A stretch of DNA of 63,575 bases, filler included. It is 6 parts of 6 records of this genome, joined end to end, with 100 filler letters (N's around TTAATTAATTAA, not from the genome) between each part and the next. Parts side by side here need not be neighbours in the genome. Positions count along the whole stretch, not along the records: positions 31,517 to 39,284 come from DRR378314_1056; 5 more parts are not named here. One strand, written 5' to 3'. Both the position numbers and the translations under genes were made by a program. The notes beneath the pieces were generated by a model, which was not told the DNA's origin, ran no database searches, and worked only from the letters and a program-made list of their open reading frames with translations. Numbering within the stretch: position 1 is the stretch's first letter; the number at the start of each line of letters is the position of its first letter. Positions 7,266 through 57,373 of this stretch are shown piece after piece.

Positions 7266-7365
7266 NNNNNNNNNNNNNNNNNNNNNNNNNNNNNNNNNNN
7301 NNNNNNNNNTTAATTAATTAANNNNNNNNNNNNNNNNNNNNNNNNNNNNNNNNNNNNNNNNNNNN
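7266..7365. other. Artificial contig linker
   Basis: 44 N + TTAATTAATTAA (stop codons in all six frames) + 44 N. Confidence 0.98.
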
Positions 7366-31416: not shown

Positions 31417-31516
31417 NNNNNNNNNNNNNNNNNNNNNNNNNNNNNNNNNNNNNNNNNNNNTTAATTAATTAANNNNNNNNNNNNNNNNNNNNNNNNNNNN
31501 NNNNNNNNNNNNNNNN
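31417..31516. other. Artificial contig linker
   Basis: 44 N + TTAATTAATTAA + 44 N. Confidence 0.98.
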
Positions 31517-31540
31517 TGTGTTGTGTTGTGTTGTGTTGTG
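31517..31540 (+). repeat. (TTGTG)n microsatellite at the contig start
   Basis: tgtg ttgtg ttgtg ttgtg ttgtg; may explain the assembly break. Confidence 0.8.
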
Positions 31541-31717
31541 TTTGTTCAGGTTTTTTTCGCTGCGCCCTTGCCCTACGACAGCGTGTGCCATGTGTTCTTT
31601 TTGCCTTCGTAGCGCGGCTGTAGTGATCTTCCGGGCTCTGCAGCCCGAGCGATCCGCAGGGCACCTGCGCTCTTGCTTGCTTCGCTGACAGGCTGCGTGT
31701 TTTCGGCTGGGCTGCAG

Positions 31718-31819
31718 GACCTCAAATTTGGCGCTGGTGATGGAAACCTTAACTACTACCTGTACAACTGGCAGTGTCCGGTCATTCCGTCTAACAAGCT
31801 TGGTCTTGTCCTCACGTAG
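31718..31819 (+). CDS. NMT: Glycylpeptide N-myristoyltransferase, last coding exon (missing from the ORF track)
   Basis: After acceptor ...gctgcag the exon reads [33 protein letters not shown], matching the NMT C-terminal signature KFGxGDGxLxYYLYNW...GLVL. Confidence 0.92.
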
Positions 31820-33027
31820 CTTGCACGGCAAGAGTACGCGCGCGTGCATTGCAACACATATGGGCGGACGAAGCGGTCGCTCCGTTCTTCTCAGTGCGAA
31901 TCGCGACATAGTTCCCTTTCCTCAGTAAGAGATCATCTTCTCCGCGCAAACTACGTACAGAGGCGTATTTTCGAAAAAGCAGAAGGTTTGACTTTGTCTT
32001 CTGCAGCCTAACTGTGTGCCAGCATGCCTTCTGGCCCATCCTGCGCTCGGTGAAGCTACTTGCGAGCTTGGTTCGGTTTGGTGCAGCGCTCCCACTGCGC
32101 GCTCGTGTTCGGTGCGCTGCGCCGACCCCTCCGTCTCGCAACGATGCATACATGAAAAAGAAAACACCAGCCGCACGATCCTGCAAGGGATGGTCATAGA
32201 TAATGTGAACATAGACGTGCGAACCATTTGCTTGCTCTGCGACAAGGCTGTAGAACCACAGGCTGCTAGTGCACAGGCGTTGTAGGTTGGAGACCAACAG
32301 AAACGAGAATGCGACAGCGATTTCACTCTTCCTGCTGTGCACCACCTCGCTCTCTTTCCCGCCACTTATAGTACCGTCTGCCTGAGGGCATTTCTCGTCT
32401 TGCAAATGGCTTTGAGCATCACATCCGAGACTTGGATTTCGACGAAGCAACCATGTGGACCGTACGCACAATTGTTCCTAGCTGGCGGGCGCTCGCTCCG
32501 CCTGCCACGCGCGTGGCTACTGCCTTCGAGTTGCCCTAGTCTCCGGGGAGGTGCTCGGCGCCGTATTTCGCTCACAGGCGCGCCTGGGACTTGCGCGCGC
32601 TCACCCCTTCCCTTCACGCCCGAGTCGACTCCCGCCGCCCGCCCGCGCCACAAACGCGGTGCAACAGGTTCCGTGTCGCATACCACACTCTTGACGGCCA
32701 GTGCATCCGACGCGTGACAGCGGATCTTGCATCGCGTTAGTTTCTTTCTCATTCCTGCCCACAGGAAGCACGGTGATTGACGAGTGCGGGGAAGATCTTG
32801 CGGCTGGTTGACAGCTTGGGTATCCGCAGGAGAGTTTCTGCGATAGCGCCGGGGCAAGGTCGCGTGGGACTGCAATTGTGCCGCGCCCACAAGGCCCCTT
32901 GCGCCCGCGCTCGCACGCATACGCACCTGCAAGGCAGCGATGACGATCTCTGCGCGAGAAACCAAAGCGATGCATGGTGCTGAGCCAAGCATGCGCCCCA
33001 GCAGTAACCCTTTGGCTTGGTTTGCAG

Positions 33028-36000
33028 AACTAGCGAATCACATCCATATCGAAGAAAAGGTCGGCCGCGCCACACCGGCGGAGGCTAAAGCCGAGGCGAC
33101 GGCGTTTGTGCACCGAACTGCTGATCAGCGAGCTGCTTCCGCCGCCACAAAGCCAGCAGCAAAGAACGCAGCAACGCAGCCCGCTGCAGCGACTTTGAAA
33201 ACAAGGTACCTGCGCCCTGCATGCCTCTTCGTCGCCTTTCGCACTGGCAAAGGTGTGCCGTGAAACGACACCACTTCTGAAAAGGATATACGCTAAAGAG
33301 AGTGCAGCGACCAGGAAAATTGTTACCTGTCCACGTAACGATGTTGCTCTCCACGGCAGTAGTCCATAGTGCGCGCAGCGTAGCTCATTGTCGCCATTCC
33401 TGGCGCGCACCGTATGTTTCGCCGACGAGTGCAAGTGCACACGCTCCTCGCGTCTGCCACGCGTGTACTTTCCCTCGCCTCGCTTCCATGTGCTGCCAGC
33501 TTGCCTGCTGCTGGCATTGTGATAGCGCTGTGAAGCGGTGTAGACAAGAGCAACCCAGGCATGTACGCAAACTGGATGTATGCGTTGTCGAGCATATGAT
33601 TCGCGCCATCTCAGAGACTTTGCATGATACAGCTTTTTCTCCAGAGGAGGCAAGTCGCTGCACTTGCGCCCACAGAGCGATGGGCGCAGGCGCGTCAGTG
33701 CGCTTGTCGCCAGAGAGGGGGCGCTCTCGCCTTTGGAAAGGACACGGTCCACACTCCCCTGAAGGAGCCAGCCCTGCTGCTCCCGCAGATCGTTGCTCTC
33801 AATTCACGCCGAAGCGCGCCTGGATCTTCCCTTACCTTCCCATCCAATCGACGCGCCATTCTTAATTCTTGCATATACAAATCCAATGATTTAGATGCAT
33901 ATCTGCGCTTTACGCCCTACACTTGGCATTCGTTAGGGTGAGTGAGAAGCATTTTGGAGCTCGCACAGAGTATCTTACCGAATGCACTACGCGAAAGAGA
34001 AACTGGAGTGCTGTACAAACACTGCACAGTACGCACCCGCGCTCGTCCGTATGAACGAGCGTAGGCAACACCCAACGCCGTCGGCCTGTTAGTCAAAGGC
34101 GATAGATTGCAGCATAAATCAGCACATTAAAATTAAAATATCATGCGGTCTTGTTGCTAAGCCGATTGAAGAAGGACAGTGGGCACAAGTTGAGCCTGGC
34201 CTCACTATTGCACGGCAGCATTCCGCTCGCCACTAGGAGCAACGGGGAGGCATTGTGTACACCCTACTCGCGAGCGCGCAACACGAGGCCACCAGGACGT
34301 TGGACAGTACGCACTTATTGGTCTGCCAATCGTATCGCAAATGCGACTATCCGATTCCTACACTACGCGTCAATCGTTCTTGAAAGTTTGCATGTATATC
34401 CTGCACGCAGCAATGATCCAACACCTCTCCCTGGCGCTGCTGCGCGCGAAACTCACGAAATTCCTTCTGCCCGTGCTCGTTTCCACCCAGGCCTGCCTCA
34501 TCTCCCACGCCCAAGGCTGCTCTCTCACACAGCCAAGTCTCACAGCGCGTCGAACGAAAACGGCAGAGAATCTCGCGCAAGCAAGCTGCGGGAGCAAATT
34601 CTGCGCGTGAATCAACTGCAGACAACCGAGAGTCTGTCGGCCGCGCGAGGTCATCTGCGGGGCGACCCAGCGAACAAGCGCAAGCGCCGCAAGAACCGAT
34701 CACCACGGGCACGCCGACCAAAACATGTGTGCAGCCTACCAAGGCTACAAAATCGAGCACCAAAAGCAAGCCCACAACAAAACAAAGCAAGAAACATAAA
34801 AGTTCTTCTTCGTTTGTGGAGATGGACTCGGTTGAGAGCGTAGGTAGCACCCGCAAAGGGCACCGAACCGGGCGTGGGCTCCTCGCAAAGCACCGGAGGG
34901 AAGCGGACGTCGACACAAAGGTGAAGACAGCCGTCGCAGACACTGGGGCTGCAAAAGAGATTTCCTTGCGTACGTTTGACATGCCAACACTACGTACTTT
35001 ATCATTTGGAACATTTAATACGCAATAGAATGCTAGATTCGTTGATCAAGTGTCATGCAAAGGCATTGGCCGCCGCGCTGAAGTGATCCCTCCTGTGCGC
35101 ACATCAGGAAGCGCGCGCGCCTGGACGCAGCTATCCAAGTCGCGCTGCGCTCTTGGGCGCACAAGAGGTTTGCGGCATGTTTTGTCGCACGTCAAGCCTT
35201 TTGTATAGTATTCTGACCGGTACATCATATAACGCAGCAAAACAAATTATCAACAACGCAATCCAAAATTGGAAAATAATTCTCGCTCCAAAATCTGTTC
35301 ACTGCTAACCACGACCGCGCGACGCACACTAAGCGCATCAGCGCGACCCAGCTACGCAGCCTTGCCGCCGCGCGCCTAACCCGTCCGAACGTCACCCAGC
35401 AGCGTGTCCGCAGAACACACAGACCTTCCTCCAAGGAGGGATCACAACTGCAGCATTATTGGGTAGACCCGCAAGAAATGATGGGAAACAAGCAAACGCA
35501 GATCCCTTTCCTTTGGACGCAGCCGTGCAATCTCTCCGCGTGGAAAGCACTTTTCGCTGACAAATGTGCACGCACTCGCTCCTTGTTTTCTATTCAGCCC
35601 TGACGGCGGCCGCGGCGAAGACGCCAAAAACGTATATTCCGGGCATCTACAGTCCCCAGCGCGACGGCGAAGCTACCCTATGTGATCGTCAACCTGTACT
35701 TAAGCGCGCTTGGCGTGCGCTCAAGGACTCCCGCATTGCGCGCGAGCGCAACGAGGCAGTGATTCGTGAACTGCAGGGCGTCCAGCTGGATTTCTTGTTG
35801 GCTACTTCTCGCGCAACCCGAGTGCGGCGTGAGCGCTCAAAACTTGTTGCGCTTGCCTATGACGAGGGAACGTTTCGTTATGTCGATATTGCGCGCGTAC
35901 TGCACGAGGCAGAACCTTCCGTCACATGTTACTCCACGCAAGTGATTCACGTACTTATCCGAAACGGCCGACGATATTCCTCCGAAGACCAAGCCGGGGC

Positions 36001-36718
36001 CGAGCCAGGGCCGATGGGCGGCGAAGCCTCGGCAAGCGCCCGTGCTGGCAGTGCGAAAAAAGCGCAGCGGCGCACGCCCAGCGGCGCTACCTCCGACTCG
36101 AAAAACCACATGAAAAGTGACGTTTCAAATCCCCAAACCTCCAGAAAAAAGAGCGGCGGCGCAAGTTTTGTTCTGCAGCTCACGGAAATGCAGCGAGCCT
36201 TTGTTCAATCCGAAAAGGACCTGCTGCAATGCCGCCGGCAACGAGCTGTCAAGGTTGCCCACATGTACATTGACGAGGCATTCCAATATGTAGAAATTGC
36301 GGGCATTCTGCATTCTGTTGATGAAACCGGGCCCGAATACTCTTTGCAAGCTGTGGCGAAACTTGTCAAGACTGGTCGCGATCTCGCTCTTAGTGGAACG
36401 GTTGATGAGAAAATCACGTCTGGAATGTCGGCGGTGAAGAAACTCTCGCGTACCTGCAGCTCGTCAGCAGAGCAAAGTCAAGGGCCGCAGCCTTTGGCAC
36501 ACTCGCAGGTACAGGAAGCAGCTTCATCTTCAAAAAGCAAAACACAATTGAATATTCCATTACATTCACCGGAGCACAAGAGAAAAAAGACGCGACCGCG
36601 AAAGAGAAAACTAGGCGTTTTCGAGTCAGATACCGAGTCTGATAGTGCTCACGGGAAAGATGAGCAGGAATTGGAACAAGGAGGCACCAAGCGAGCCAAG
36701 CTGCCTTCCTCAGAATAG
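33028..36718 (+). CDS. Uncharacterised, probably nuclear protein: low-complexity N-terminal half, two tandem HTH-like repeats, basic NLS-like tail; 5' exons unresolved
   Basis: Candidate exons 33028-33205, 34491-34969 and 35598-36718 join in frame (phase 2, then phase 1). The last exon holds two ungapped 71-aa repeats and KRKKTRPRKRK. The terminal exon is better supported than the upstream joins. Confidence 0.6.
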
Positions 36719-37919
36719 CGTGCTTACGTCCACAAAGACACATACGGTAATTCATACGAATATGTACATTGATTCGCATGTCGCAACGATTGGGCACGGC
36801 GTGTGAACACGCTGCAGTGCAAGACCTCTCTCTTGGGTGACGGGAGGGCCAAGCGACTCTCGGTGCCGCGATTGAGATCCTGCGTTCGAACAACCGTCTC
36901 CCCCACGTCGTCAATGTACACGCAATAAGGCGGAGTCCACTGACATTCGCAAATCATACTTGCATGAGGATCATTCGATAGCGTTCATAGCAGTTCTGCG
37001 CTCCGCAAAGAGTCTCCTGAATACCTCGATTCTGGAATCGACCACCATTTCGCCTGTATCAATGCATCCGTGACGCGCACCTTCCCGGTACGCAAAGCAA
37101 TGCGTGTAAAATAAGAATGTCCATGATTTACGTTTACCAACTCACTTCCTTCCATGCGGATTTTAGGAAGCAGCGCAGTAATTACTGCTTTGTATGTAGC
37201 AAAAATCCGCGAAATACATGCAGTCGAAAGCAAGAGCCGCCCAGACCGCACAATCGGCCGGGGCACAGTTCGCGCTCGAGTGGGTCGACAGTGCGCGGTG
37301 CATATCGATCTAACCGTCATCCGGCAGCGTACCCACTTGCTGGATTTTATATTCAGCAGCACCATCACACCCTCGCACCAATCGATACGCACCAAACCAA
37401 ACTGCGAAACGATAGAGGTTCGTACTGTGAAGTGCACGAGAGCGGGCGGTCGCTCTCCGAAGCTACCACGGAGCAAACTTCGCCGACAGACGATGGAGAT
37501 CACATAGGTGACACGGAGCACGAAGCGGATTGCACGCAAGGCAATGTCCTCTTTTTTTTGGACGTTGACCCGTGTGTTGCGTAGAGTCCAGTGAAAGGCG
37601 ATCTTGCCGTACTGAAGCTATTTTGTTCATTATGTAGCGAGTTTGGCTGCTCACAGCACGGAATAGCGGCGTTTCTGTCGACAACAATGCCCAATGGATA
37701 CGAAACATGAGGTCTCCGATAGCACTTCCAAGTTGTGCTCTCGGATTATAGCCCTCTCAACATCGCCAGCGGTACAATAGCAGCAATGAAAAAGCCAAAG
37801 AAACATTTATCACATGATTAGATCCATATATTCATTCACGGGTCTTCTGTACGCGCGACAGGAAGACAGGCAGCAGCAAACGCTCCACTAGGGGCAGGTG
37901 CACACGCGGAGCGCTGCAA

Positions 37920-39014
37920 TCACACGTGATTCCCGGCGCGCCTGTACTCGATAAACTGCCCCAGATTCTCGACGACTTCCTCCAGCCTCTCCTGAAACTA
38001 CAATATTGAACAGAATCAAATGACAGTCGATACCAAACTCCATTATCACATGGGATACCAAGACCACTCACATAGTCGGATGGCGGCATCGCCGCGGAGT
38101 AAAGATGGGAAAGGCACGCGCGACGCACTCTCTCACACACAACGCAAACGCGCGGGGATGGTATTCTCGCGCAAAGTCCTCGCTGCAATCGTGCAGAGAT
38201 TCTATCAGCGTGTGCTGAAGCACAATAAGCGCGCTCTGTTCCAAAAGTTTGGATCATTGCAGTGTAGCACTGTATGGTGGAGAACAGCGGCCGAAACGCA
38301 CCGCAGGGTCGCTGCCGTTGTCCGCCGCCAACGCCCGCAGCGCACGCGAGAGATCGGCGTGCAGCGCGCCGAGGCCGCTTAGGACATCGAGCTTGTCAAA
38401 CACATCCCCGTGGTTATCGGTGGCATACACGTCAATCAACGCATTTGCACACTGTGACGCAAAGAAGTAACATAGAACGCGGAGCCGGCATGGTCAAGCC
38501 TGTCAGCATTGGCGCAAACGCAGAAGCGGCCGGCTAGTGCCGGGCTTGGGAAATGTGAGAAGAAAGCAGCGCAGTTGCACCAGAGCGCAGCAAACGAAGT
38601 TCTCGTCTCCCATGCACTCTCGGTCTGTTCGACAGAGCATTTTCAACACGGAGGGGGGTTCGTTTCGTCAACAGATCAAATTCCATGAAATCAGCGCAAC
38701 CAATATACGCCGGCACAGCTTGCTGAGCGGCGACAGCGTACCTCTGTCTTTGCAACCACTCCGCCTTCACGCGCAGCAGCCAAGACGGCGCGGACCATTT
38801 TTTCGTTTACGCCATTCCCGTGAGGCTGACCCCCGAGAAGTGCGACTGCAGAAAGCGCACATCCCCGCGCGCTATCCTCACCACAGCGCGAGAGCGCGAG
38901 AATAGCGTCGAGCATCGGCTCGTCGATGGCCAGCTGGCTGCGCCGGCCTCCGTCCCACGCCTGAACTCCCGCAAGTGCCAAGTGCGCGCTAGCATCGATG
39001 ATCTCGCTCTCGGG
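37920..39014 (-). CDS. HEATR3/Syo1-like ARM/HEAT-repeat protein, last three exons (5' truncated)
   Basis: Exons 39014-38742, 38451-38302 and 37991-37920 are all phase 0. Protein ...VVAKTECANALIDVYATDNHGDVFDKLDVLSGL...ERLEEVVENLGQFIEYRR resembles the HEATR3 C-terminus (EALDALFDVF.D ... NLRRFIAYQ). Confidence 0.75.
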
Positions 39015-39284
39015 CTGCGTGGCGCACAGCGCGGATCAACACAGACCGGTACGCATCAGTTTCTGCACGCAGTGCTGCCTGCAACAGTGCGACTCGCAGT
39101 GTAGCACTGCGGTCGCCGCCGCCTCCAACCGCTTCCGCGTGCACGTGGTACAACACTATCCGCTACAGCATGCGCGGGATGCGTAATTATCCACGAGCTG
39201 CATGCACGCGTTCGGGCGCATCAGCACGCGTGTCACTCGACGAAATAACCCCCTTGCCTGTCCCGTGACACTCACACTTCCTTG

Positions 39285-39384
39285 NNNNNNNNNNNNNNNN
39301 NNNNNNNNNNNNNNNNNNNNNNNNNNNNTTAATTAATTAANNNNNNNNNNNNNNNNNNNNNNNNNNNNNNNNNNNNNNNNNNNN
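39285..39384. other. Artificial contig linker
   Basis: 44 N + TTAATTAATTAA + 44 N. Confidence 0.98.
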
Positions 39385-42074: not shown

Positions 42075-45000
42075 TCACATTGGCGGTGGCGGTGGCGACT
42101 CGAGCAAGCTGTCTGCGACCGCGCGCTGCCCTTGCACGAGCGCCGCGCGCAGTCTCCCGATCAGCTCAGCACACTGGAGGACATCCTGCTGCGCAACTTT
42201 CCAGCGCTGTTGGGCAGTGTGGAGCTCGACTGAGGAAACGTCCGCATTCTCTGCATTCGCTTGCGATACAATCGCGCGAACCAAGGCCTTGGCTTCTGCA
42301 GCGTGGCGCAAGCGCTGCTCCAGGCGCGGAAGCAGCTCGTGCACAGAGACGTTCTCCGCGGACTCCGGGCGCAGTAGCTCCGCACTTTCGCATTGCGCAC
42401 TCGCGCGCTGGATCTCAATTGCACCATTTTCCCTGTCCTGGTCAGGCAGTCGCAAGGATGATTCTCTCCGAGATACAGCTTCACTCAGCATAATATACGG
42501 AGGTCGACGAGGAGGCGGTCGCTGCACGGGACGGAGCGCGGGGGGGGGGGGAAGAGCGAGACGAAACCGGGTTACACGCGAATGTTGAGGCGCACAAGCG
42601 AACGAGCAAGCAATGCAATACAGAGCCACTCAGGACCACCGGAGGGTACCCCCTCCTTCTGCATTGTACCTTGGGTCAAACGTTGGGATATGGGGTTCAA
42701 GATCACATGCAGGAACGCACGCAAGCACGTGCGTGCGTATGCACGCACCGGCTGCCGTGGATATACGTCGCGCGAAGTCGCTGCGACGGCGAGGGCGCGC
42801 GGTCGCCAGCGCGCGTCGGCGAGCGCGGCGCCGTCGGTGCGCAGCTCGTTCGGACGCGACTGCGAGAAGGGACTCGCGTAGCTGGAACGTTCAAACCGCG
42901 ACACTGCCGTGCGCTTCCAGCGCGATACGATGGTGCGCATTCTCCACCTGTGGGATCCGCGTCAGTGAATCGCAATGGAATCAAGTATGACCAAAAGAAA
43001 TTGCGTGGAGCGCAGGTGCAACGAGTACAGACTGGCCCAGACACGCGTATGGGCAGAATTCTTCACGCATAGCGCAGAAAGTGGTACTTTCCTTTGGCGA
43101 ATATTTTTTCCATGAGAAAAGTATGAGCATCGTGCAATGGCAAAGTTGTATCGGCCCATACACTAGCAATAACTTTTTTTTGACAGCTCGCTAGTCATCC
43201 CGTGCACTCCAAAACGAGTAGAAACAAGCGCGCAGTGCTTCCGCGACAGCTGGACGCGCCGCACACTGTCCCGTTCCTCCTGCCCATCTGGTAATATAGT
43301 GGAGCAAGTCCCCGAATATTCCAAATACGCTCGCACTATCTGTGCAACATTATCACACAACATCCTACCCCCCAACATGAATCCCATATGGTGTAAGCTG
43401 TAGATTCCGTGCAAGCCATTCGCGTACCTCTTGGCATACTTCTCCGCGAGTCGCAGCGATCTGCGAACGCGCTCCGCGGCGTCCTCCTCGGCCCCGCGCA
43501 GGCGACACTCGCGAATCGATAGCGCAGCACTTATCCAGCGTTCGACCGCGGTACGAACAAATTCTGTTTTACGAAGCTCTAGTGCATGGCGTAGACGTGT
43601 GTTCTTGTGCTTTCGGTGTACTGCGTATTCGACCAGTGCGCGAAAGGCTGCGCGTTGCATCCGCAGCGCCGAGTGGCGCCGCGCGAGCCGGTGTTGCGAC
43701 AGAATCGCCCAGACAGAACGCACAACCGAGGAGCAGTACTGCGCGTGTGCCTGCGCTTCGAGCTCTTTACGGGTCCTCCACACGCATGTAGCCGACGACA
43801 ACGCGCTGAGAGCTTTCCTCAGCTGCGCGCAATCACTGTGAGATGATGCGCGGGCCAATTGAATACGCACGTACACACGTGCAGCGTGCCAGTCCTTCCA
43901 AGCGTGCACTGCGAACTGCAGCTGCGACGGCGCCAAGCTTTTTGCCACGAGACACAACCTGCAATCCATGTCGCAACGTCATGAAACGACGCAACAAAAA
44001 CAGAAAGCACATCAGGAAGAACAATACAAGCAAGAGCGAACACGACAACCGTGTGGCACATAGAGCAAAACGCTGTGCAATGGTGCCCACGATTGATACG
44101 TACACGTGGGCAACCGCTTGGGTTCTCTGGGGAATCCACGTAGCGCGCGTACGATGATTGCGAGCTGAAGTACTGATGTGACCTGGGTTCTCCAGCTGCC
44201 ACATTCGGGCTGGAAAGAGGACGCGGGGAACCGCGACCGGGGACGAAAATGGAAACACGCACCTCTGCACACCGAGCCTTCTCCCCTGACGCTGCAGCGC
44301 GACGATACTCGCCCAGGCCACTACTGTCGAGCGCAGTAAGCTACTCGCCCAAAGCGCAGCGGCGCGCGCGTGCCGAAGTCGTCTGTTTGCCGAATAATCG
44401 CAGAATGCTCGTAGAGTGAGTAGTGTGCGGCGATATCGGGTGCGCTGCCACAACATTGCAGCTCGCGCGGAAACGAGTCGGCGCGCAACGCGAGCGCGGC
44501 AGTGCTCCCTCATGCATGCCACTGCCCCGCGCTGTCGTCGTGCCTCAACAGAACGGCGCAGCTCAATGGCACGGGCTACAAGTGCGCTCCATTGCATCGC
44601 ATTCCTGCATAATGCGCGAAACGCGAGTCTCAAGAGTCTTGTGTAGGCAAAGCGCGCTGCCAGCCGTCGCTTGCGCTCGTTGTAGCGCCCTGCCTCCGTC
44701 GCTGCGTGCAGAGATCGAAAGGAGCGCAGCAACAGGCGCCATCGGTGCTGTTGTACTGCAAGTGTCATTTTGTGAGATTCGTCTTTGGTGGCAAGAAGAT
44801 ACAGACGCACAGCTAAAAAGAATCGCCGCAAAACGTGCTTTCGCGCAAGGCGCTCAAAGGCGAGTTGGCGAACCCAGAGACGAAACTGGCGCCGAAGAAG
44901 GACTCGAGAGTGAGCCCGTACAATCGCCTTGCGCTGAAGATGTCTCTTGCGCCACCATACTGCGCGGTTTTGAAGGAGACATCGTACGCGCGCAAGTTTC

Positions 45001-47339
45001 GCTTCCTGTTTCAGGCGTCGAAACACAGACTGGAGTCGTTCGAACTTGCGTGATTTTAGCGACCTGGCGTACATTCGAGAAACTGTGATAGCCCAGGACA
45101 CGTTTTTGCACCATGAACTCCACATGCGCCGCAGGAATGCGCGCGCGCAGTGCGCACGCAGAGCCTGCTTTGCTTTGTTGTGTTCAACAGCAAGGATCAT
45201 CCACTGTACGCCCCTTTTGCGGCGCTGTTTGCTCAAATGTGCGAACGCACGCTCCGCAAGCACATCCTTTCTCGACTGAATCCAAACGTTCCTGCAGTAC
45301 ATGGTACGGAAGTACAGCTCTCGGCCTAGTTGGTAAGCTGATCGAGACGCCAGAATTCTTCGCTAGCACTGTCTTTCGATGCGCTTTCCTCTGGACTGCT
45401 GCATTTTTCATTTGTGAAATGGTAATTCTCTTTTTTCATGTTCGCGTATATGTTTGGACGCGAGAGCAAGTTTCTGTAATTATAATATGTGGCAACAGGA
45501 GCTGCTGCGGGCAGCTTGCAAACGATCGAGTTGGGGGAGCACAGGGCGAGGTGACAACTTGCACATGTTGGCCCCTCCCCCGCGCTGTCGAAAAACTTCC
45601 AACACTACTGAATCCTAGCGACATCCACACAAAATAGTGAAGAAAAAGGGACAAGTATAGGGAGAAGCAAATGTAGAAGGAATCTGCAAACGTAAAGGAA
45701 TGTCCAACATTCACTCGTTCTTGAGCACTTGCCACGTGCAAGGTGCATCATCTCATGTGCGGACCTACCTTTGCAGTTCTTTGGCCGCTATTCGTTTCGC
45801 TGTTTGTTCCCAGTGCGCTTGTGCAGCATAGTTCATTGATTCTATATGATATTTAAATGCCACAGCGTTCACCCAGTCGCGAGTCGCTCGCCGAAGTCGG
45901 ACGCGCGCTCCTCGCTGGCGCAGGACCGATGCCTGGCGCCCGAGCTCCCGCAGTTGTGCAAAGCAGCCACGCACCAGCGACCTCGCGTGGAAGCGCAGCG
46001 CCTGAATTTGCTTTTCTTCCTTTTGCCGTCTGGTCACAACGTATTGTATCCACCTCTTGAAAACATGTCGTTGGATTGCGACGCCAGCTGCGCATGATAC
46101 AGTGCCAGGTGTGAAGCACAGGAGAGTGAGCAGGAGGAGGAGCTACAGCGCGGCAAGATCGTATGCGTACTTTCCCTTAGGTTTCTGACCAAGGCTTGCC
46201 AATACATGCTGCTGCGAGGGACAATCAAAGATAAAAAATTACCCACTTTTCCCGCCGTAGAATAAAGGCTTCCCGCAAATTGCTTGTTAAGTCAATATAA
46301 AAGCTCTTTTTCTTCCCAGGAGCTGGGTGTCTACGCGGTGGTGGTAACGCTGTGCGTGGCAATTGCACTTTCGCACCGCTTCAGAAGCCGATGAACGCGG
46401 CGCAGTGCGTGTGCGAAGTGGAACAGATCAGTTGGATACAAGTTGCCAATGCAACGTACCATAGCGTATTGCTCGGACTGTCAAGTGCACTTCCTTGGAA
46501 TTATACAACGAAAATTTAGCCCAGCATAAGAGAGCTTTCCGTTTAATGGTAAATGCAGCATAGGCGTCGGCTCGGATCTCGTTTGCCCAACTCCGACGCT
46601 TCTCGGCTGTGCGCGCCCTCCAGTGCCGAAGAAAGGAAAGCAGCGCACGTTTGTCCTGCGGGCCCCTGCTGCGAGACTCCCTCCCACGAGCGGCTTGAAT
46701 CCACAATCTGGCAATTCTATGAACAATTCGCTTCACATGATCTCTCGATAGACGAGAGTCTTCATGCCGTGGGGGTCGAGCCTGTGAGCGAGGGCGCCTG
46801 TGCTTTCTCGCGCTCGGGCCCTGAGCCCGAGCCTCGGACCGGTGTACCTCCGTAGCAGGAGAAACGGCAAGCACAGGCGCTTTTTCTCCCCGCGCTACCT
46901 GAGGCGTACTACGGATCGTTCCTTGCTTACATTCAAAAATTTCACTTTGTTCATCCGAATTGAAAGAAACTCCATCCGTAGAGGAACATCTCCGGGGAAC
47001 ATTCGAAGACGACGGCGGCGCTCTCTGGTATCGCGTTTGTGCGGCCAAGTCTTCCCTCCGCGACTGCCCTGCCCCATCGCCAGGGGATTGCAGCCCGCCT
47101 TCAATCGCGCGAAGCAGCGCAAGCTTCCGTTTCGCCTGCTGAACGTCTCGTGCACTAGGAAAAACGCGAATTGCTTCTGCCTCTTCTCTCAATCCTTCGT
47201 CTTCAAGATCATCGGCGTGAGAGAGAATACGGCGCCGCGCAGAAGAGACCACCGATAGCTGCTTGACAGTACTACGGTTCGCTGCAACAAAGTCCTTCTG
47301 CGCGCCCTCGCCTGCAGCAAGCGCGCGCGCAACCTTCAT
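42075..47339 (-). CDS. SFI1: Sfi1-like centrin-binding repeat protein, multi-exon; 5' end unresolved
   Basis: Long Arg/Ala/Trp-rich helical exons with repeated A-x7-LL-x3-F/L-x2-W-like units (ADAYAAFTIKRKALLCW, AAALWASSLLRSTVVAW, AVQQHRWRLLLRSFRSL, AFLRRMWSSW, VLLRRQFRLW), ending in RPPPRRP and a coiled-coil-like segment. Confidence 0.75.
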
Positions 47340-47628
47340 CCGTGTCAGTATCGGCCAACGTCGCTATCGAAAGAGCCCTCGAATGGAAGCTTTACAGAAT
47401 ACTTGCATGGAAAGTTCGAACGTCGTACGCGACAAATGTTGCCAATACGACCAAGAGTGCGCCCGTAGTAAGTGTGCAGCAGAGCGTTTGTCCTTGCGTC
47501 TTCTGTCCGCGGTGCTCTGCTGCGCGACGAAGCGCGTGTATCGACAGGAAAAGGATGGACAGATGACGAGAGCGCATACGCGGTTGTGTTAACAAGGGGG
47601 AGAGGATCCGATGCAGCCGTTCGGATTT

Positions 47629-47728
47629 NNNNNNNNNNNNNNNNNNNNNNNNNNNNNNNNNNNNNNNNNNNNTTAATTAATTAANNNNNNNNNNNNNNNN
47701 NNNNNNNNNNNNNNNNNNNNNNNNNNNN
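47629..47728. other. Artificial contig linker
   Basis: 44 N + TTAATTAATTAA + 44 N. Confidence 0.98.
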
Positions 47729-49949: not shown

Positions 49950-52900
49950 TCAAGTCTCGCCGTCCGAGTTGCAATCGTCCTCGTCCGAGCTCTCCAACCG
50001 GTCTGCGCCACGCTGAGGTTCTGCCAGGCCATCGAGCGGCGACTCGCGCGGAGAGCGGAGAACCAGCGCGTTGACGTCTTCGCCCCGTTCAATCGCCGCA
50101 ACCACGGCCATTGCGCGCCGCGTGCGACGCTTGTAGTAAGCTGCACGCCTTGCCCGTCCGGCTTCTTCGTACGCAATGGCAAGCGCGCGCGTCGTATCAA
50201 GCGTTTCGGGGTGATGCTTTCCGTAGATTTCCTCTTCCACAAGAAGAGCATCGCGCAACAGCTTGCGGTGCATATGCTGGTTCCCGAGCAGCCTGTACAC
50301 CCCGGCGAGGTTGTGCAGCGTCTTTCCGACGACCCTGTGCCGTGGGCCGTGGATATCACCAAATATTACAATGGCGCGGTGCAGCGCACGCCGGGCATCG
50401 TCGAGCTCTCCAATCTGTGCGAGCGCGGTCCCGAGATCAAGCGATACCGAGGCTAAATGCACACTGTGTGGGCCATATGACGTTTCTAAACACTGGACCG
50501 CGCTGCGAAGGAGCGTCGCAGCGTCGGCGAGCTTTTCGCGCGCAGCGCACACGGTGGCCTCCGCCCGCAGGACGATCCATCGCTCACCGCTCCACTCTGT
50601 GCACTCACCGCGGCGCACCGACGAAAGAAACGCGTCGCGCGCGAGCTGCAGCGAGCGCACTCCCGCTTCAAAGGCCCCAATGCGAAGTTCGATCGAGCCG
50701 TACACGGCCAGGATCTCCGCGGTAGTCAAGTGCCCGTCAGGATACAATTCCAAGGTGATTTGGAATGCGCTGCGGCACGTGGCGGCGGCTCGCTCGGGTT
50801 GCTTGGTCACCAGGAAGAGCGACGCGCACGCACGCAGAATGTCGAGGCGCACTGAAGGCGCCGGAATCAGAGACCCATCGTCTGTGACTACGCTAACCGG
50901 TTGTTTTCCACCCCGCTGCGGCGAGGAATCGTTGGCATCACTATCACTGCCGCGACCGTGAGGGCTGACCGGCCCATCTGCATCGGCCGCCGCGCGACTC
51001 GATCCAAAGAGTGCTCGCTCGGCCGCAACCAACGCGTCCGCGGTAGCCAGCGCGCCGGCCTCGTCGCCAAGAAAGGCGTAGAGCTCTGCAAGAGCACACA
51101 ACGCGGCCACGCGGGCTGTCGTATGCGCCGTGCTCGCGCGAGCGAGACGGTCCAGCCGTGCCCCAAGTTCGCGTGCGTGCGAAACACGGCCGCACGCAAT
51201 GCACGCTGTTGTCAAGCGCGCCAGCAGCCGCAGGCGCCGCTGCGCATCCCACAAGCTCAGACGGTGCTCCGAGGTGCTCGCGTGTGCGGCAAGTGCCAGC
51301 AAAGGCGCGAGCACTGCCACCTCCGAGCGCGGCAGCCGTGCATGGGCACAGCCAAGCAAGGTCACTCGCAAGTCTGCTTCCACGCTCACATCGGCCACTT
51401 CGCTCACGGCGGCACCACGTGACGCCGACGGCGCGCCGAGAGGCGCCGGCGAGCGTCGCCGCAGCGGTGAGTGGCCAACGTCCACCGGCGTCGGGCGTCG
51501 CGCTGGCAGATGCTCCCCACTGGCGGGGTGCGGTGCAGGGAGCGTGCTCCCGCCAGTAGCAGATTCATCCGTGGTAGCCGTATTCCGCGAACGGTCACCG
51601 GTGTCTGGCGTAACGGCCGTGCGAGGAATCAGCGGCGATGCGTGCTGCATACGCGCACCGCTTGCCGTCGTAGCCCGCGGCGCTGCATCGTATAAGTTAC
51701 CGGGGGAGCTGGGACGGGCAGCGGCATCCGTAACGCGCAGCGCCCAGCGCGCGAGCTGCTCAGCTACTGAGCGCTTCTCGAGGAGACGGTATGCCTGCGC
51801 GAGCAGCGCCAGCACGCCAATTGCAGCGGCGCTCTCGGTACCGTGGTCCTGGCGCACCACGCTGAGCGCAGTCTTTAAATGCAACAGCGCGTCATCGGCA
51901 CACCCAAGCGCAAGGCTGCACGCGCCAGCTCCCGTGAGCGCAGCTACAACCACGTCCGACGGACCGCCGTCGTTGTACTCGTCTTCCGCAAACGAAAAGG
52001 CGCGCAAAAATCGCCGCCGAGCCCGGATGATCTCTCCGCGCGCAGCCATGTACTCCGCAGCAGCGCAGTAGTAGTGCGCGCGAAGCAACCTCGGCAGCTG
52101 TTCCGCATGTCGGCTGACCCACAGCAGCTGCTGGTGGGCGGCGCGCAAAGCTCCCTCGCGCAGCAGCGTGCGCGCGGTGTACAAGCGAAGCGGGAACAAG
52201 TCCGCGGTCGGAAGTCCCAGGGCACCGAGGACGCGTGCTGCCTGCGACAAGGCAGCCACACCGTCGCCAGCATCAGCAAGCACAGCGGCAGCGTCGGCAT
52301 AGAGCTTCGAGGAACCTAGCGCAACTTCGCTCACCGAGCGATCGGCAACGCCACCACCCCCGCCAGCCTCGCGAGCCAGCGCGCCGTATCGGCGCGCAGC
52401 ACACGCTAAAGCTGCGCAAAGGCTACTCGCCAGCGCGGCAAGACGGACCCGCATGGCCGGGGCGGGACGAGCGAGCAGCATCCGCTGCATACCGGCCAGC
52501 ACAACACGGGCAACGCGCACTCGACTCTCCCACGACAGAGCCGCGAGCACACCAGCCCGTACGTCGCGCTGCACTGCATAGCAACCGACGGCCGACGACT
52601 CATCGTATGCACCGCGCGCCGCAGAAAGCCTGCGCGCGAGTCGCGGAGACGCAGGGCCTCCGTGGGCATTAGGGTCTAGAGCGCCGAGCGCGTCCGACAG
52701 CCACGCCTCGTCGTCGGTGTGGTGCACGCTGTCCGCGCCACCGTCATCATCAGGTTGGAGATCGCTAGCATTTGCGCCAGCGTCGCCCATTGCACCGGCA
52801 GCAGCGGGGACTGGAACCAAGAGACCTCTCCGTACGAGCGTTTCGATCGACCCGTCCGCGTGCAAGGCATCCGCCGCGCTCGGGACACCACCCAGCCCGC

Positions 52901-54437
52901 TTCCGTCGCCGCTGGCGGAAGACTCCTGCGGAAGCATGCGGTAAGGCAGGGCAATCTCAAACACTAATGCCGCTGGCAAGAGCGTAGGAGGAAGCAGCGC
53001 CAGCCGCTCCAACAGATCATCGGCACTGGCATCGCTTGTTCTCAGCGAGCCGCGCAAGACCTCGGCGGCACCGCGAGGCGAAACGCCGTCGCCGGCGTGC
53101 TCGCCAGACAGCGTCTCGGAGCACAAAGCTCGAGGTGAGCGGGGCACAGCGCGGAGAACATCATCTGCGGAAGCCCCAGAGCCGACCATGTGTAGTTTCA
53201 ATAGCGTTACCGCTCGCAGGCTTTCACCGGCAGCGTCCGCAAGCGCGCGGATCGCGCTCTGCGGCGGAGGATCTGCGGGAGGGTCGGCGCGCGGGGACGA
53301 GAGCGCCGTCGACGCTGCAGCCGACGCGGCCGCGGTTTCTCCTAAAATCTCCAGCAGGTCTTCTTCAGAAACGTGCATACGCGGCGAAGACGCGACCGCG
53401 CCGAGAATCGCCTCGACCGCATTCCGCCGCTCCCTTCCTTGCAGGGCCTCGGCTCGGATCAGTGAGACAGCACGCACGTCTTCCGTGGCCAGGCGCACGG
53501 CTGCCTCGTCGTCGCGTGTCGTCGCAACGAGAACAGTTCCCGGCGGAAGGGCGTCCAGCACCAAAAACGGGCGAAGCATTGCCATCCCGGCACCGTCCGC
53601 CACTACAATGTCCAGATGGGCCGAGCGTCTTGCTCGCCGCCGCGGGTGGGCAATGCGCTCTACCAGTCGCTCAAGTGCAGTGCTGAGCGCAAGGTGCGCC
53701 GGCTGCGACGAGGAAGACGAGCTCCGGCTGCGGCGCTGATCGCGCAGCTTGCCGCCCTTGCCCACGCCAACGTCGTCCTCCGAAGACGACGACGCTCCGC
53801 GCTGGTCCGCCTTCCCGCCGCCAGCAAGTTCCGGTGCCTCCGCGTACGCCGACGCATCAATCCAGAACACAGTTGCCGGCCACGATGCAACCGTCCTATG
53901 ACAAGCTTCGATTACCGCCTCGCTTTTCCCGCTTTCCGACGGGCCGTGCACAACGACCACGGAGCCGCGCTCGCCAACGCCACCGGCGCTGGACGGCGGC
54001 GGCTCTCGCGCGGCCGCCAGCGCCTCGGCGACAGCGGCGGCAACGGCTTCGGCCCGCGCCGCCGCCGCCGGGCCCGCGCACCGGGGCCCTCCGGCCGCGA
54101 TATCACTAAATGCGGTTGTGCGCGGAGGAATACAACAACAGGCAAGGTGCGCTGGTGGTGCAGCTGTCGCGGTGGAATCGTGAGCGCGTGCGCGCGCGGG
54201 AGACGAAGAAGCCGACGTCTGCGCCGAAGTCGTGTCCTGGCGGCCGTGCGGTGGCGTGTCGGGCAGCGAGTCCTGCGAGCCAGAAGAGTCGCGCCGCGCG
54301 CTCTCCTCACTGAGCGCTGCCGCAGCACGCGGCGACGAAACTCCCGACTCTGCGAGAGATCCGAGCGCCCTTGCGGCAGCTTCCGAAGCTGCAGCATACA
54401 GACGCGGCGGTGAACTGCGACCGCCAAAGTCTGACAT
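49950..54437 (-). CDS. STAND-class P-loop NTPase (NB-ARC-like) with C-terminal TPR repeats; about 1500 aa in one open frame
   Basis: VVVVHGPSESGKS (Walker A), VFWIDAS, IVVADG (Walker B-like), LVATTRD, LLERLALL; then kinesin-light-chain-type TPRs such as YGPHSVHLA...HGPRHRVVGKTLHNLAGVY...YGKHHPETLDT. Confidence 0.8.
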   Translation of the reverse strand: MSDFGGRSSPPRLYAAASEAAARALGSLAESGVSSPRAAAALSEESARRDSSGSQDSLPDTPPHGRQDTTSAQTSASSSPARARAHDSTATAAPPAHLACCCIPPRTTAFSDIAAGGPRCAGPAAAARAEAVAAAVAEALAAAREPPPSSAGGVGERGSVVVVHGPSESGKSEAVIEACHRTVASWPATVFWIDASAYAEAPELAGGGKADQRGASSSSEDDVGVGKGGKLRDQRRSRSSSSSSQPAHLALSTALERLVERIAHPRRRARRSAHLDIVVADGAGMAMLRPFLVLDALPPGTVLVATTRDDEAAVRLATEDVRAVSLIRAEALQGRERRNAVEAILGAVASSPRMHVSEEDLLEILGETAAASAAASTALSSPRADPPADPPPQSAIRALADAAGESLRAVTLLKLHMVGSGASADDVLRAVPRSPRALCSETLSGEHAGDGVSPRGAAEVLRGSLRTSDASADDLLERLALLPPTLLPAALVFEIALPYRMLPQESSASGDGSGLGGVPSAADALHADGSIETLVRRGLLVPVPAAAGAMGDAGANASDLQPDDDGGADSVHHTDDEAWLSDALGALDPNAHGGPASPRLARRLSAARGAYDESSAVGCYAVQRDVRAGVLAALSWESRVRVARVVLAGMQRMLLARPAPAMRVRLAALASSLCAALACAARRYGALAREAGGGGGVADRSVSEVALGSSKLYADAAAVLADAGDGVAALSQAARVLGALGLPTADLFPLRLYTARTLLREGALRAAHQQLLWVSRHAEQLPRLLRAHYYCAAAEYMAARGEIIRARRRFLRAFSFAEDEYNDGGPSDVVVAALTGAGACSLALGCADDALLHLKTALSVVRQDHGTESAAAIGVLALLAQAYRLLEKRSVAEQLARWALRVTDAAARPSSPGNLYDAAPRATTASGARMQHASPLIPRTAVTPDTGDRSRNTATTDESATGGSTLPAPHPASGEHLPARRPTPVDVGHSPLRRRSPAPLGAPSASRGAAVSEVADVSVEADLRVTLLGCAHARLPRSEVAVLAPLLALAAHASTSEHRLSLWDAQRRLRLLARLTTACIACGRVSHARELGARLDRLARASTAHTTARVAALCALAELYAFLGDEAGALATADALVAAERALFGSSRAAADADGPVSPHGRGSDSDANDSSPQRGGKQPVSVVTDDGSLIPAPSVRLDILRACASLFLVTKQPERAAATCRSAFQITLELYPDGHLTTAEILAVYGSIELRIGAFEAGVRSLQLARDAFLSSVRRGECTEWSGERWIVLRAEATVCAAREKLADAATLLRSAVQCLETSYGPHSVHLASVSLDLGTALAQIGELDDARRALHRAIVIFGDIHGPRHRVVGKTLHNLAGVYRLLGNQHMHRKLLRDALLVEEEIYGKHHPETLDTTRALAIAYEEAGRARRAAYYKRRTRRAMAVVAAIERGEDVNALVLRSPRESPLDGLAEPQRGADRLESSDEDDCNSDGET

Positions 54438-57273
54438 CGCCGCAGAGGCTGTGTACGGGCACGCGCACAGAGCCGCCGTCAACGTTGCCGGTGCGCACGG
54501 CTAGGTCACTTGGTGTGCCGTTTTCTTGCGGACCGAGGCGTCACACCAAGAGGAGCGCAGCACGCGTGTGGGTGTGCAGCTCCACGCCCGCGTCACTGCG
54601 GGCAGCCGCAGCGCGTAGCGCACAGCAGTAGGTGCGCCGACGCCCAGCAGGAAATTGGGTGAGCAACACCGGGGCACGTCAAGACTCTGGCAGCTATGTT
54701 TGAAAGATAGTGTACCAAATGAACAAAACAGGAGCACAGAGCCCGCAATGCGCGCGCAACCTGCGCGCCGCTTCCACCGTGGAAAAAAAGAAAAAAAAGA
54801 AAGAAGTAGAGTCCGAGGTTGGGTGCGCGCGGAACAGGAAACTGCAGTGCGTGATAGCGGCGGTGCGGCGCGCCCTCGGCTTGCGACAGAAACTCCAGCT
54901 CCTCGGGGGCCCCTTTGCCGAGCACCTAGCGCAATGTGCCTCGCCTTCTGTGGGAGGTCGGCGGAAGGGGCACCCGCATTGAACGCGCGGCCGGAGCCTC
55001 TTCAACGCTGCCGCAACGTTGGCGCCGTAACGCTCGCGACTTGCTCTTGCAAAACATTTGTATTCCCCGACGCCATGGAGAAGGGAAAAGCGAGCCCTTT
55101 CGCCTCTTTATCCTTCAAAAGCTTTCTTTTTTAGTTCACCACCTTGCGGCAAGTTCATGGGTTCATATCGGAGCCTCTGGTGTAGCCCACGGGAGCAGAG
55201 GAGTGCGGGCGAGCGCAGCGTTTGCCGTTGCCGCGAGCAAGTGCCGCGCGGCGCGAGCAGATTTGCCCTGTCGCCTGTGCTTCTGTCGTTGCGGATAGGG
55301 CCAACGGCAGCCACGCGCAAGGGGCCCGTGCGTTCCTTTGCGGACACATCGCGAAGCAAGCGCCTCACGCTGCTACCGCGGCGGCCAGATGCACTCTGCT
55401 GGCTTGCCCGGCGGGACCCAAGTTCTACGTGTGCAACGTGTCTTTTATACTGCAACGGAGATCGTGCAGAGCCGCGTAGCTGGGGAGGTAAAGCTCGCGG
55501 CTGCGCTGGAAGCTGCTGCGTGCGGCGCGGAATCCCAGCAGCCGTAGCTGGCGAAGCGGCTCACGGGCGTCTGGGTGCGGGCAGTCCCACACGAACACTC
55601 CAGCGGCACACGCACGTGAACGGCTGCGCAGCGCTTCGCCTTAGAGGCGCGTCGTGAGCGCTGGGAAGAGAAGCCGCACGACGTACAGCAACAGCCCCTC
55701 TGCGCGCGCACAAAGTTTCATTCGTGCGCGCGCGCGCGCACTTCCCTAGGAGTTGCAGCACCAATTCTTACAGCATGGATTTGCCATTGAGGGAGTCCGG
55801 AAATGTACGCTGTTGGCTACGGCGCAGGAGGGCACTCTTGGGGCGGGGTGTTCCGCCCCAACAGCACCACGTGCACGCCGGGGCGGAGCGCGCGTGTGCG
55901 GAAACATGGCGCTGCGGCCACGCGCGTCCTTCCCTCGCCTTACTCCCGCACGATAGGTGGGCGCAGCGACACACACGCGTGCCGAGCAGCCGCTGCAGAG
56001 CGCGTGGCCTTCGCGTCCCCTCAGTGGCGTCTCACCTGCCCATGCCTCGCACTTCTCAATCTTCTCATTACATTCGTAAGGAGCAGCTGTGGGAATTGCG
56101 CTGCGCTTTCTCCTCCTTCCAGCCGAGCTGCGCAGCCCGTGTGCCCAAAAGGAAGAGGCCGATCCACCGAACTGCCTGCACAAGCGGCTCGGTCATACCA
56201 GAACGAAGGCGTTGGGTTGTCCTCGTGCAGCTTTCCACGCAACCGTCGCCGCTTTCACCGCCGGTATATCTGCAATCGGCTAGCAAGACTACACACTTAT
56301 GATAAGCAAGATGGAGGCCACGGACAGGCTCATGGGAGGACTGATAGTAGGCGCGCTTCGCTCTATACGAGAGGGCAATGCACACACGCTGCCATCGGTT
56401 CGCCAACGCGCTACACGTTCGGATTCGTGAGCTGCGCAGCGAAGCCTTGGCGGTTCCGCCATGGGCACCGCAACACCGAGCAAGGAAACGAAAGGTAACG
56501 AGCAAGGGACAGCGTGCCCCGCTCTTTCGTTTCTCAGCATGCCTCAGAGTCACACATGTCGCAGCAGTTCATTCATGGTCGATTCCGTGCGCATCAGCTC
56601 GCCCTGAGAGCGCGGTCTTTCTTAGTGCCGTTCGTGAGATGTTTCACCGCGCGGCGTGCACTTTCTCTAACGGAGGGGCCGCCGAAGTGCGCGTTCGCTT
56701 CGGGAAACCGGCGTGACGCGTCCGATTCTGCCACGTCGCAAAAGTTCCAGTACGCATTTACTTTCGTTGAAAATGGGAGGTAGTAAGAAAGTGCGGTCGC
56801 TGCAGAGCTGCTGCTAAAGCGCTGTGAAATGCTCGCGATTCAAGTAGGGCGTCCGCCGGTGTTCCGCAAGCTCACGCGCAAGCAATACGTAACAGAGGCG
56901 GAACCCGCTCCAACTGCGCCTATGCCGAGCGAAGCATGCGAACAAAATATTAAAAATCAGACCGGAAAGGCACAGCGCACCACGGCTATGGACGAGCATA
57001 CCAGCAACCATCGCTCGCTCGCGTTCCGAATGAACACGAAAGTGTGCGCAAGGGCAATATTCATATACGTACAAAACTAGAGTACAGTACAAGCGCTACA
57101 CGCCGCAGCTGGCACTGGAGTGCTACAACCCTCCGGGAAACCCCACTTCCGAACCATCGTCGCTCTCGATAAACGGCACGGACATCACTCCAGTGCCTCG
57201 TCGAGCAGCGCCTCGCTCCCCGACAGACTTCGTTGATTTCTCACGAAACACGGAAGTGCACCTCCCGAGATAA

Positions 57274-57373
57274 NNNNNNNNNNNNNNNNNNNNNNNNNNN
57301 NNNNNNNNNNNNNNNNNTTAATTAATTAANNNNNNNNNNNNNNNNNNNNNNNNNNNNNNNNNNNNNNNNNNNN
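57274..57373. other. Artificial contig linker
   Basis: 44 N + TTAATTAATTAA + 44 N. Confidence 0.98.

Follow-up and report, generated by a model that had tools for sequence, protein, structure and literature searches.

Our analysis of a window of 63,575 nucleotides (nt), the whole stretch of DNA examined here, revealed an open reading frame (ORF) whose protein contains the same 71-residue module twice. The window consists of six pieces joined by spacers at 7266-7365, 31417-31516, 39285-39384, 47629-47728 and 57274-57373; each spacer is made up of two runs of 44 N around 12 bases, and genes that face each other across a spacer have no linkage. The finding sits in the piece at 31517-39284 (DRR378314_1056), which has 7768 bases, a G+C content of 52-60% and a eukaryote-like character. 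From stop to stop the ORF spans 35561-36718 on the plus strand and 385 codons; no other ORF of the piece is as long, the runner-up having 257. Its product, here called P0001, is the translation of 35600-36715 and comprises 372 amino acids (aa). The other ORFs of the piece (n = 50, at least 70 aa each) contain no Pfam family above its cut-off, and this, together with the lack of another long ORF, fits eukaryotic nuclear DNA. A DMRT-like match in the neighboring ORF set stayed below threshold (18.8 bits against a cut-off of 27) and was disregarded. An Rfam search gave no match, no terminal inverted or long direct repeats were found in the piece, and the repeats it does contain are short two-copy matches only, which we took as chance. 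Coordinates of the features are collected in Table 1.

The duplication is real, old and situated within the coding frame. A sequence-only reading of this DNA that preceded our work had matched two 71-aa segments without gaps, and BLASTP of repeat 1 against repeat 2 bears this out (22/70 identities, 39/70 positives, no gaps, 40.4 bits, E = 2e-11), while MAFFT leaves 22 invariant columns out of 71, the same columns as those of the shared core motif given in that reading. The ungapped BLOSUM62 score of the pair, 96, was reached by none of 100,000 shuffles (-55.7 ± 17.1, maximum 24). When all off-diagonals of P0001 were scanned blind, the same pair was recovered with a score of 97 at residues 54/190, as compared with 14.5 ± 6.3 and a maximum of 37 when whole-protein shuffles (n = 200) were scanned. 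Translated in its other two frames, the repeat DNA yields 14 and 13 identities and scores of -8 and 10. Between the copies, 37, 39 and 18 of 71 nucleotides are identical at codon positions 1, 2 and 3, respectively, the third position being at the random, saturated level. Since the first two positions have been kept and the third has been randomized, the frame must be translated, the duplication must be old, and both copies must have been kept under selection. The absence of relatives, described below, would be in keeping with a chance ORF or a decaying pseudogene at a locus without a functional gene. We find this hardly credible given the length of the stop-free frame relative to the next longest ORF, the codon-position pattern and a hydrophobic pattern that is conserved between the copies.

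Table 1. Features of the P0001 locus, in window coordinates
Feature	Position	Strand	Remarks
Putative exon 1	32940..33205	+	proposed by the sequence-only reading; ATG at 32940 to donor-like GTACCT at 33206
Putative exon 2	34491..34969	+	proposed by the sequence-only reading; in phase with 35598; basic, S/T/K-rich
3' splice-site-like signal	35557..35597	+	CTGAC at 35557-35561, pyrimidine-rich tract, CAG ending at 35597; pattern only
In-frame ATG	35564..35566	+	permits a single-exon reading; the first 20 residues are hydrophobic and equal the translated pyrimidine tract
Last coding exon, or the bulk of a single-exon gene	35598..36718	+	open from 35561; stop TAG at 36716-36718
Repeat 1	35762..35974	+	P0001 residues 55-125; net charge +4, pI 10.0
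Linker	35975..36169	+	P0001 residues 126-190; basic, net +4, includes KKAQRR
Repeat 2	36170..36382	+	P0001 residues 191-261; net charge -1, pI 6.1
Basic cluster KRKKTRPRKRK	36578..36610	+	residues 327-337; like a nuclear localization signal by pattern only
Second short basic motif, TKRAKL	36686..36703	+	near the C-terminus

We read the locus as the last coding exon, or the only one, of a lineage-restricted gene in a microbial eukaryote, a proposition that is part of our overall explanation and shares its tentative standing. For the two upstream exons that the sequence-only reading had proposed, codon log-odds in the proposed frames are 0.148 (34491-34969) and 0.041 (32940-33205), and the other five frames are negative for each. 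The codon model was trained on the exon at 35598-36718 itself. As evidence for the upstream exons these values are weak, and the small training set makes them partly circular. Alternatively, the gene might have a single exon that starts from the ATG at 35564, in which case its hydrophobic N-terminus could serve as a signal or targeting peptide of a secreted or organelle-directed repeat protein. The ATG is indeed in frame, and the next approximately 20 residues are hydrophobic and close in an Ala run, but these same residues correspond to a pyrimidine tract that ends in CAG and has CTGAC 37 nt upstream, a typical acceptor layout. The putative upstream exons, moreover, are in phase and have positive log-odds in the proposed frames only, position -3 of the ATG is a C, and the protein carries a strong basic cluster, all of which make this single-exon reading, with a secreted or organelle-directed product instead of a nuclear one, quite improbable.

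Two further features of the putative introns are recorded here in their own right. The candidate donors at 33206-33211 and 34970-34975 read GTACCT and GTACGT (GTAC-N-T), and a YTNAY-like motif is found 35-37 nt upstream of both putative acceptors (CTCAC at 34452-34456 and CTGAC at 35557-35561). If real, these elements would hint at the signals that mark introns in the source organism.

In P0001, the 65-aa linker consists to 72% of P, E, S, Q, K, G and A and to 8% of hydrophobic residues, and AlphaFold2 predicted no secondary structure for residues 129-186, at low confidence. The disordered linker and the two basic motifs behind the repeats, which the sequence-only reading had described, were all located in P0001. 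The protein is mostly basic and disordered, and probably nuclear.

In the AlphaFold2 model of an 85-aa repeat 2 construct, helices span residues 2-39, 45-53 and 64-80, with a predicted local distance difference test (pLDDT) score of 67.6. When repeat 1 and repeat 2 were predicted as a complex, the score was 0.87, as compared with 0.56 for the best of three controls; in the calibration of this score, 51 of 78 solved complexes attained that mark, as did 2 of 108 mismatched pairs. From run to run, at least 98% of the contacts are the same, and the partner has a pLDDT of at least 89. Contacts pair residue i with a residue at about 42 - i along residues 5-37, and this constant sum (i + j = 42) means that the long helices run antiparallel. 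According to the models, each copy's short second helix makes contact with the beginning of the partner's long helix, and the last helix lies outside the interface. Positions 5, 9, 12, 16, 19, 23, 26, 30, 33 and 37, spaced by three to four residues, are mostly hydrophobic in both copies. On the strength of these predictions, the two repeats most likely pack as an antiparallel pseudo-dimer, not as separate beads.

Is the module a helix-turn-helix (HTH) domain? The sequence-only reading had likened it to sigma70 region-4-like HTH proteins, and we compared, using hhalign, a profile of the two repeats with profiles built from Escherichia coli K-12 segments located by Pfam models. Six sigma region 4 segments gave a probability of 39.3% (score 23.2), and six sigma region 4 segments combined with six LuxR-type segments gave 58.5% (24.6). 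The remaining HTH profiles gave 5.8% for GerE (20 segments, score 16.2), 0.42% for Cro/CI-type HTH_3 (12 segments, 10.7), 0.3% for hits of the HTH_23 model (11 segments, 9.6), 0.12% for TetR_N (12 segments, 7.7) and 0.04% for HTH_8 of the Fis/NtrC type (9 segments including the preceding helix, 6.0); HisKA and sigma region 2, neither of which is an HTH, each gave 0.4% (10.2 and 11.3, respectively). A broader profile, composed of region 4 of E. coli FliA and of 29 other members of the FliA family taken from genomes of a single phylum, reached 57.2% with a score of 25.4 over 50 ungapped columns, and the 18 members less than 70% identical to the E. coli protein reached 52.4%. The 50 columns take in the pre-HTH helix, the first helix of the HTH and the position of the recognition helix, and both repeats align with E. 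coli FliA region 4 in one register, with 15/50 (repeat 1) and 10/50 (repeat 2) identities. The best ungapped local scores against FliA were 44 for repeat 1, reached by 0 of 2000 shuffles, and 36 for repeat 2, reached by 21 of 2000. Because this alignment contains no insertion, the longer turn that the sequence-only reading had assumed would not be required by it.

Controls indicate that the match exceeds what non-HTH helical decoys produce. None of 150 column-shuffled profiles reached the score (maximum 16.4), and the reversed profile gave 0.18% or less. Decoy pairs, natural two-sequence sets from the non-HTH families HisKA and sigma region 2, never reached it, either against the sigma profile (0/50, maximum 14.1) or against the FliA profile (0/40, maximum 14.1). 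Genuine HTH pairs, for their part, mostly exceeded 23.2 against the sigma profile (TetR_N 33/40, HTH_23 hits 20/20, GerE 40/40), and against the FliA profile the score of 25.4 falls inside the spread of such pairs (at or above it: GerE 22/30, HTH_3 16/30, TetR_N 0/30, HTH_8 0/30). Taken singly, the repeats retain a region-4-like signal of 14.1 (repeat 1) and 17.4 (repeat 2), where 280 natural decoy windows gave at most 16.1.

This weak signal in each copy alone and the 65-aa disordered, basic linker between the copies would also suit a pair of HTH units that are flexibly tethered and act independently, one per half-site, in the manner of paired-type or Tc1-type bipartite binders, a version of the bipartite protein that the sequence-only reading had proposed. 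That reading of the repeats gives way before the complex prediction, in which the two long helices are packed together with high confidence (0.87 as against 0.56), and before the low value of the E. coli profile matching HTH_23, the family that covers transposase-type HTH domains. We regard independent units as improbable.

A number of results weigh against a region-4-like, paired HTH protein. The signal depends on FliA: the six-sigma profile drops to 3.5% once E. coli FliA has been removed, whereas FliA alone gives 67%, RpoD, RpoH or RpoS alone give 0.14% or less, and the 29 other FliA members taken singly range from 0.3 to 74%. Five other HTH family profiles lie at 0.04-5.8%. In BLASTP, neither repeat matched region 4 of E. 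coli FliA at E values up to 100, and no HTH family, PF04545, PF08281 and PF00196 included, was found in Pfam, NCBIfam and PHROGs (E up to 10) or in searches of the Protein Data Bank (PDB). A hidden Markov model (HMM) of the six E. coli region 4 segments scored the repeats at 0.2 and 2.9 bits, values that 49/500 and 8/500 shuffles reach. In repeat 2, Gly-Pro occupies the point at which the recognition helix would start, and the net charge is -1. The P-values overstate the case, since the pattern was already known when the family was chosen. On the structural side, the AlphaFold2 models are weak (single-sequence pLDDT of 42.9 at full length, which is unusable, and 67.6 for the 85-aa construct) and, weak as they are, match no known fold; the model of repeat 2 contains a 10-residue connector, not a tight turn of 3-4 residues, with pLDDT of 52-61 there. 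The score of 0.56 was obtained with an unrelated control protein, which suggests that repeat 2 is "sticky", and the complex score is blind to whether pairing occurs within a chain or between chains. Finally, the predicted interface shows no enrichment of invariant residues (9/22, as compared with about 42% of all residues).

These points lend themselves to a different explanation, our main rival: within a disordered basic protein, the two modules may form a helical-bundle domain for protein-protein contact, be it self-association or docking, which itself binds no nucleic acid and owes its likeness to region 4 to convergent helix patterning. The sole confident prediction is indeed one of helix pairing, through a heptad-like stretch of about 33 residues; no HMM library contains a matching HTH family, five of seven HTH family profiles are at background, and repeat 2 is slightly acidic. 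It is hard to see, on the other hand, why non-HTH decoy pairs should then fall so far below the region 4 score, or why a 50-column ungapped match should be found in one register for both repeats. The polar residues shared by the copies (Arg-Arg-x-Arg, Ser-x-Gln and Arg) are likewise easier to reconcile with a binding surface than with a core of purely structural role. We consider a pure protein-contact role somewhat less likely than the HTH reading, and take the likeness to FliA-type region 4, which has moderate support, to be real but in the twilight zone, going beyond generic helix patterning and falling short of membership.

P0001 has no detectable relatives. A word-indexed protein search, run in two length classes and with the repeat alignment, returned none. 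phmmer over 1.84 billion representative proteins found no credible relative, and its sole hit, P0002 (E = 8.9e-4, 35.1 bits, 6 stretches), was judged to be chance inflated by repetition, as it matches repeat 1 only, via a short many-copy motif; P0002 is an unnamed protein of 1675 aa in which a unit of about 62 aa recurs in tandem at least a dozen times. Pattern matches in metagenome contigs (335 and 137), viral contigs (101 and 13) and prokaryote genome contigs (53) included no confirmed relative. tblastn against 50,697 phage records gave no match at E values up to 1, and the ESM Atlas gave no usable one. hmmscan against Pfam, NCBIfam and PHROGs at E values up to 10, a setting at which the HMMER filters drop most matches above E 0.1, and sequence and profile searches of the PDB named no family and no HTH match. 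The paralogue check suggested by the sequence-only reading, run with a two-repeat HMM on the 1234 six-frame ORFs of the window, returned only the protein itself (136.6 and 140.7 bits, the next ORF scoring 5.8 bits).

Several named domains were considered and set aside. The ankyrin repeat was dropped because its sole match is short and weak: 31 residues, which run from the last part of repeat 1 into the linker, align with the designed protein 5le3_A at E = 0.33, and Pfam lists no Ank domain. Myb/SANT, homeodomain and SAP/HeH domains, judged by Pfam hmmscan alone, are not listed for P0001 at E values up to 10, and paired amphipathic helices are likewise absent from the Pfam listing. Transposase and integrase domains were found by Pfam neither in the ORF nor in the rest of the piece.

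The sequence-only reading had further entertained a horizontally acquired or domesticated mobile-element domain, and we considered a recent bacterial or phage source in the same light. The closest profile, FliA-type sigma region 4, is certainly bacterial, but the phage records, the viral, prokaryote and metagenome contigs and the 1.84 billion proteins contain no relative, the piece contains neither a transposase or integrase domain nor terminal inverted or long direct repeats, and the saturated third codon positions indicate an old duplication. A bacterial, phage, mobile-element or horizontal origin of this recent kind is therefore very improbable, and that part of the earlier interpretation finds no support here.

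The best overall explanation, which we advance tentatively and would place just short of an even chance, is that P0001 is a lineage-restricted nuclear protein whose paired modules bear FliA-type HTH-like lobes and bind nucleic acid. Each module of about 71-85 aa would consist of a long amphipathic helix, a short helix, a connector and a last helix, with the second half of the long helix and the two short helices resembling the HTH of FliA-type region 4 in sequence profile. Antiparallel pairing of the long helices would turn one chain into a pseudo-symmetric unit with an HTH-like lobe at each end, a single-chain counterpart of a bacterial HTH homodimer. The KRKKTRPRKRK cluster may provide entry into the nucleus, where the unit could bind nucleic acid, probably DNA with two half-sites, through the residues kept in both copies, namely the Arg-Arg-x-Arg cluster and Ser-x-Gln at the start of the last helix. 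The helix layout and the pairing of the repeats are model predictions; the HTH fold, the nuclear location and DNA binding we infer. DNA binding at a two-part site appears to be the likeliest function, one that we hold to be possible rather than probable.

What would such a protein mean? For most protist lineages the repertoire of transcription factors is poorly known, and DNA-binding domains specific to a lineage form a main gap in it. If the explanation is correct, P0001 would be a nuclear protein with a sigma-region-4-like HTH in a single-chain pseudo-dimer and a compact case of duplication replacing dimerization; in the portions of the literature reached by a narrowly based search, this architecture was not found. 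We speculate further, as a distinctly unlikely extension, that P0001 represents an undescribed eukaryotic DNA-binding family, in which an ancient bacterial-type region-4-like HTH had its leading helices merged into a pairing helix and was then duplicated to give a single-chain, two-fold reader. At present, the value of P0001 is that of a candidate for testing, an orphan gene with a fold assignment in the twilight zone.

Other pieces of the window contain unrelated genes. The piece at 7366-31416 is plainly bacterial and encodes a JmjC/ROXA-like oxygenase, adenylosuccinate lyase, MnmA, a monomeric isocitrate dehydrogenase, a Clp ATPase, FtsK, an MgsA/RarA-type ATPase and TrmA, as well as the N-terminal part of a large NAD-glutamate dehydrogenase, which is severed by the end of the piece. 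On the minus strand, a 1516-aa open frame occupies 49950-54500 in a stretch of 63-68% G+C; its last approximately 170 residues match TPR_12/nephrocystin-3-type TPR, and the approximately 1340 residues upstream match no Pfam family at E values up to 0.001. A further eukaryote-like piece has minus-strand frames at 43833-45362 (509 aa) and 46428-47363 (311 aa), with no Pfam family at E values up to 0.001.

Among known systems, region 4 of FliA/sigma-28-type factors (Sigma70_r4, PF04545; whole protein TIGR02479) is alike over the 50 ungapped columns (52-58%). Unlike it, P0001 has neither a Pfam-model nor a BLASTP match and lacks sigma regions 2 and 3, contains the module twice per chain, has Gly-Pro at the start of the presumed recognition helix in repeat 2, and is set in a eukaryotic context with disordered basic flanks; its models, moreover, fuse the two pre-HTH helices into one long helix that is predicted to pair. 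Membership in the transposase-type or paired-type bipartite HTH proteins was rejected on the HTH_23 profile (0.3%), the lack of a transposase domain and the lack of terminal repeats in 31517-39284, and membership in Cro/CI-type HTH_3 and in TetR_N on their profiles (0.42% and 0.12%, 12 segments each).

Two systems offer parallels in architecture. In eukaryotic R2R3-MYB factors, an internal duplication has given two small three-helix modules that read DNA jointly. P0001 would be a like case among eukaryotic proteins, with two small helical modules of the same kind of origin (on tandem Myb repeats, compare PMC4603784). P0001 differs from them in that it has no Pfam Myb/SANT match at E values up to 10, in that its repeats measure 71 aa, as compared with about 50, and have 65 disordered residues between them where Myb repeats adjoin, and in that they are predicted to pair by their long helices. 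The second parallel is with the Fis/NtrC-type HTH_8 domain (PF02954), in the sense of working alike only, since an HTH_8 profile value of 0.04% indicates that P0001 is not a member of that family. Fis is a dimer in which helices of both units form the core and an HTH is located at each end. The predicted layout of P0001 is alike, a two-unit helical core with an HTH-like lobe at each end that would suit two half-sites, with the difference that both units would be copies within one chain.

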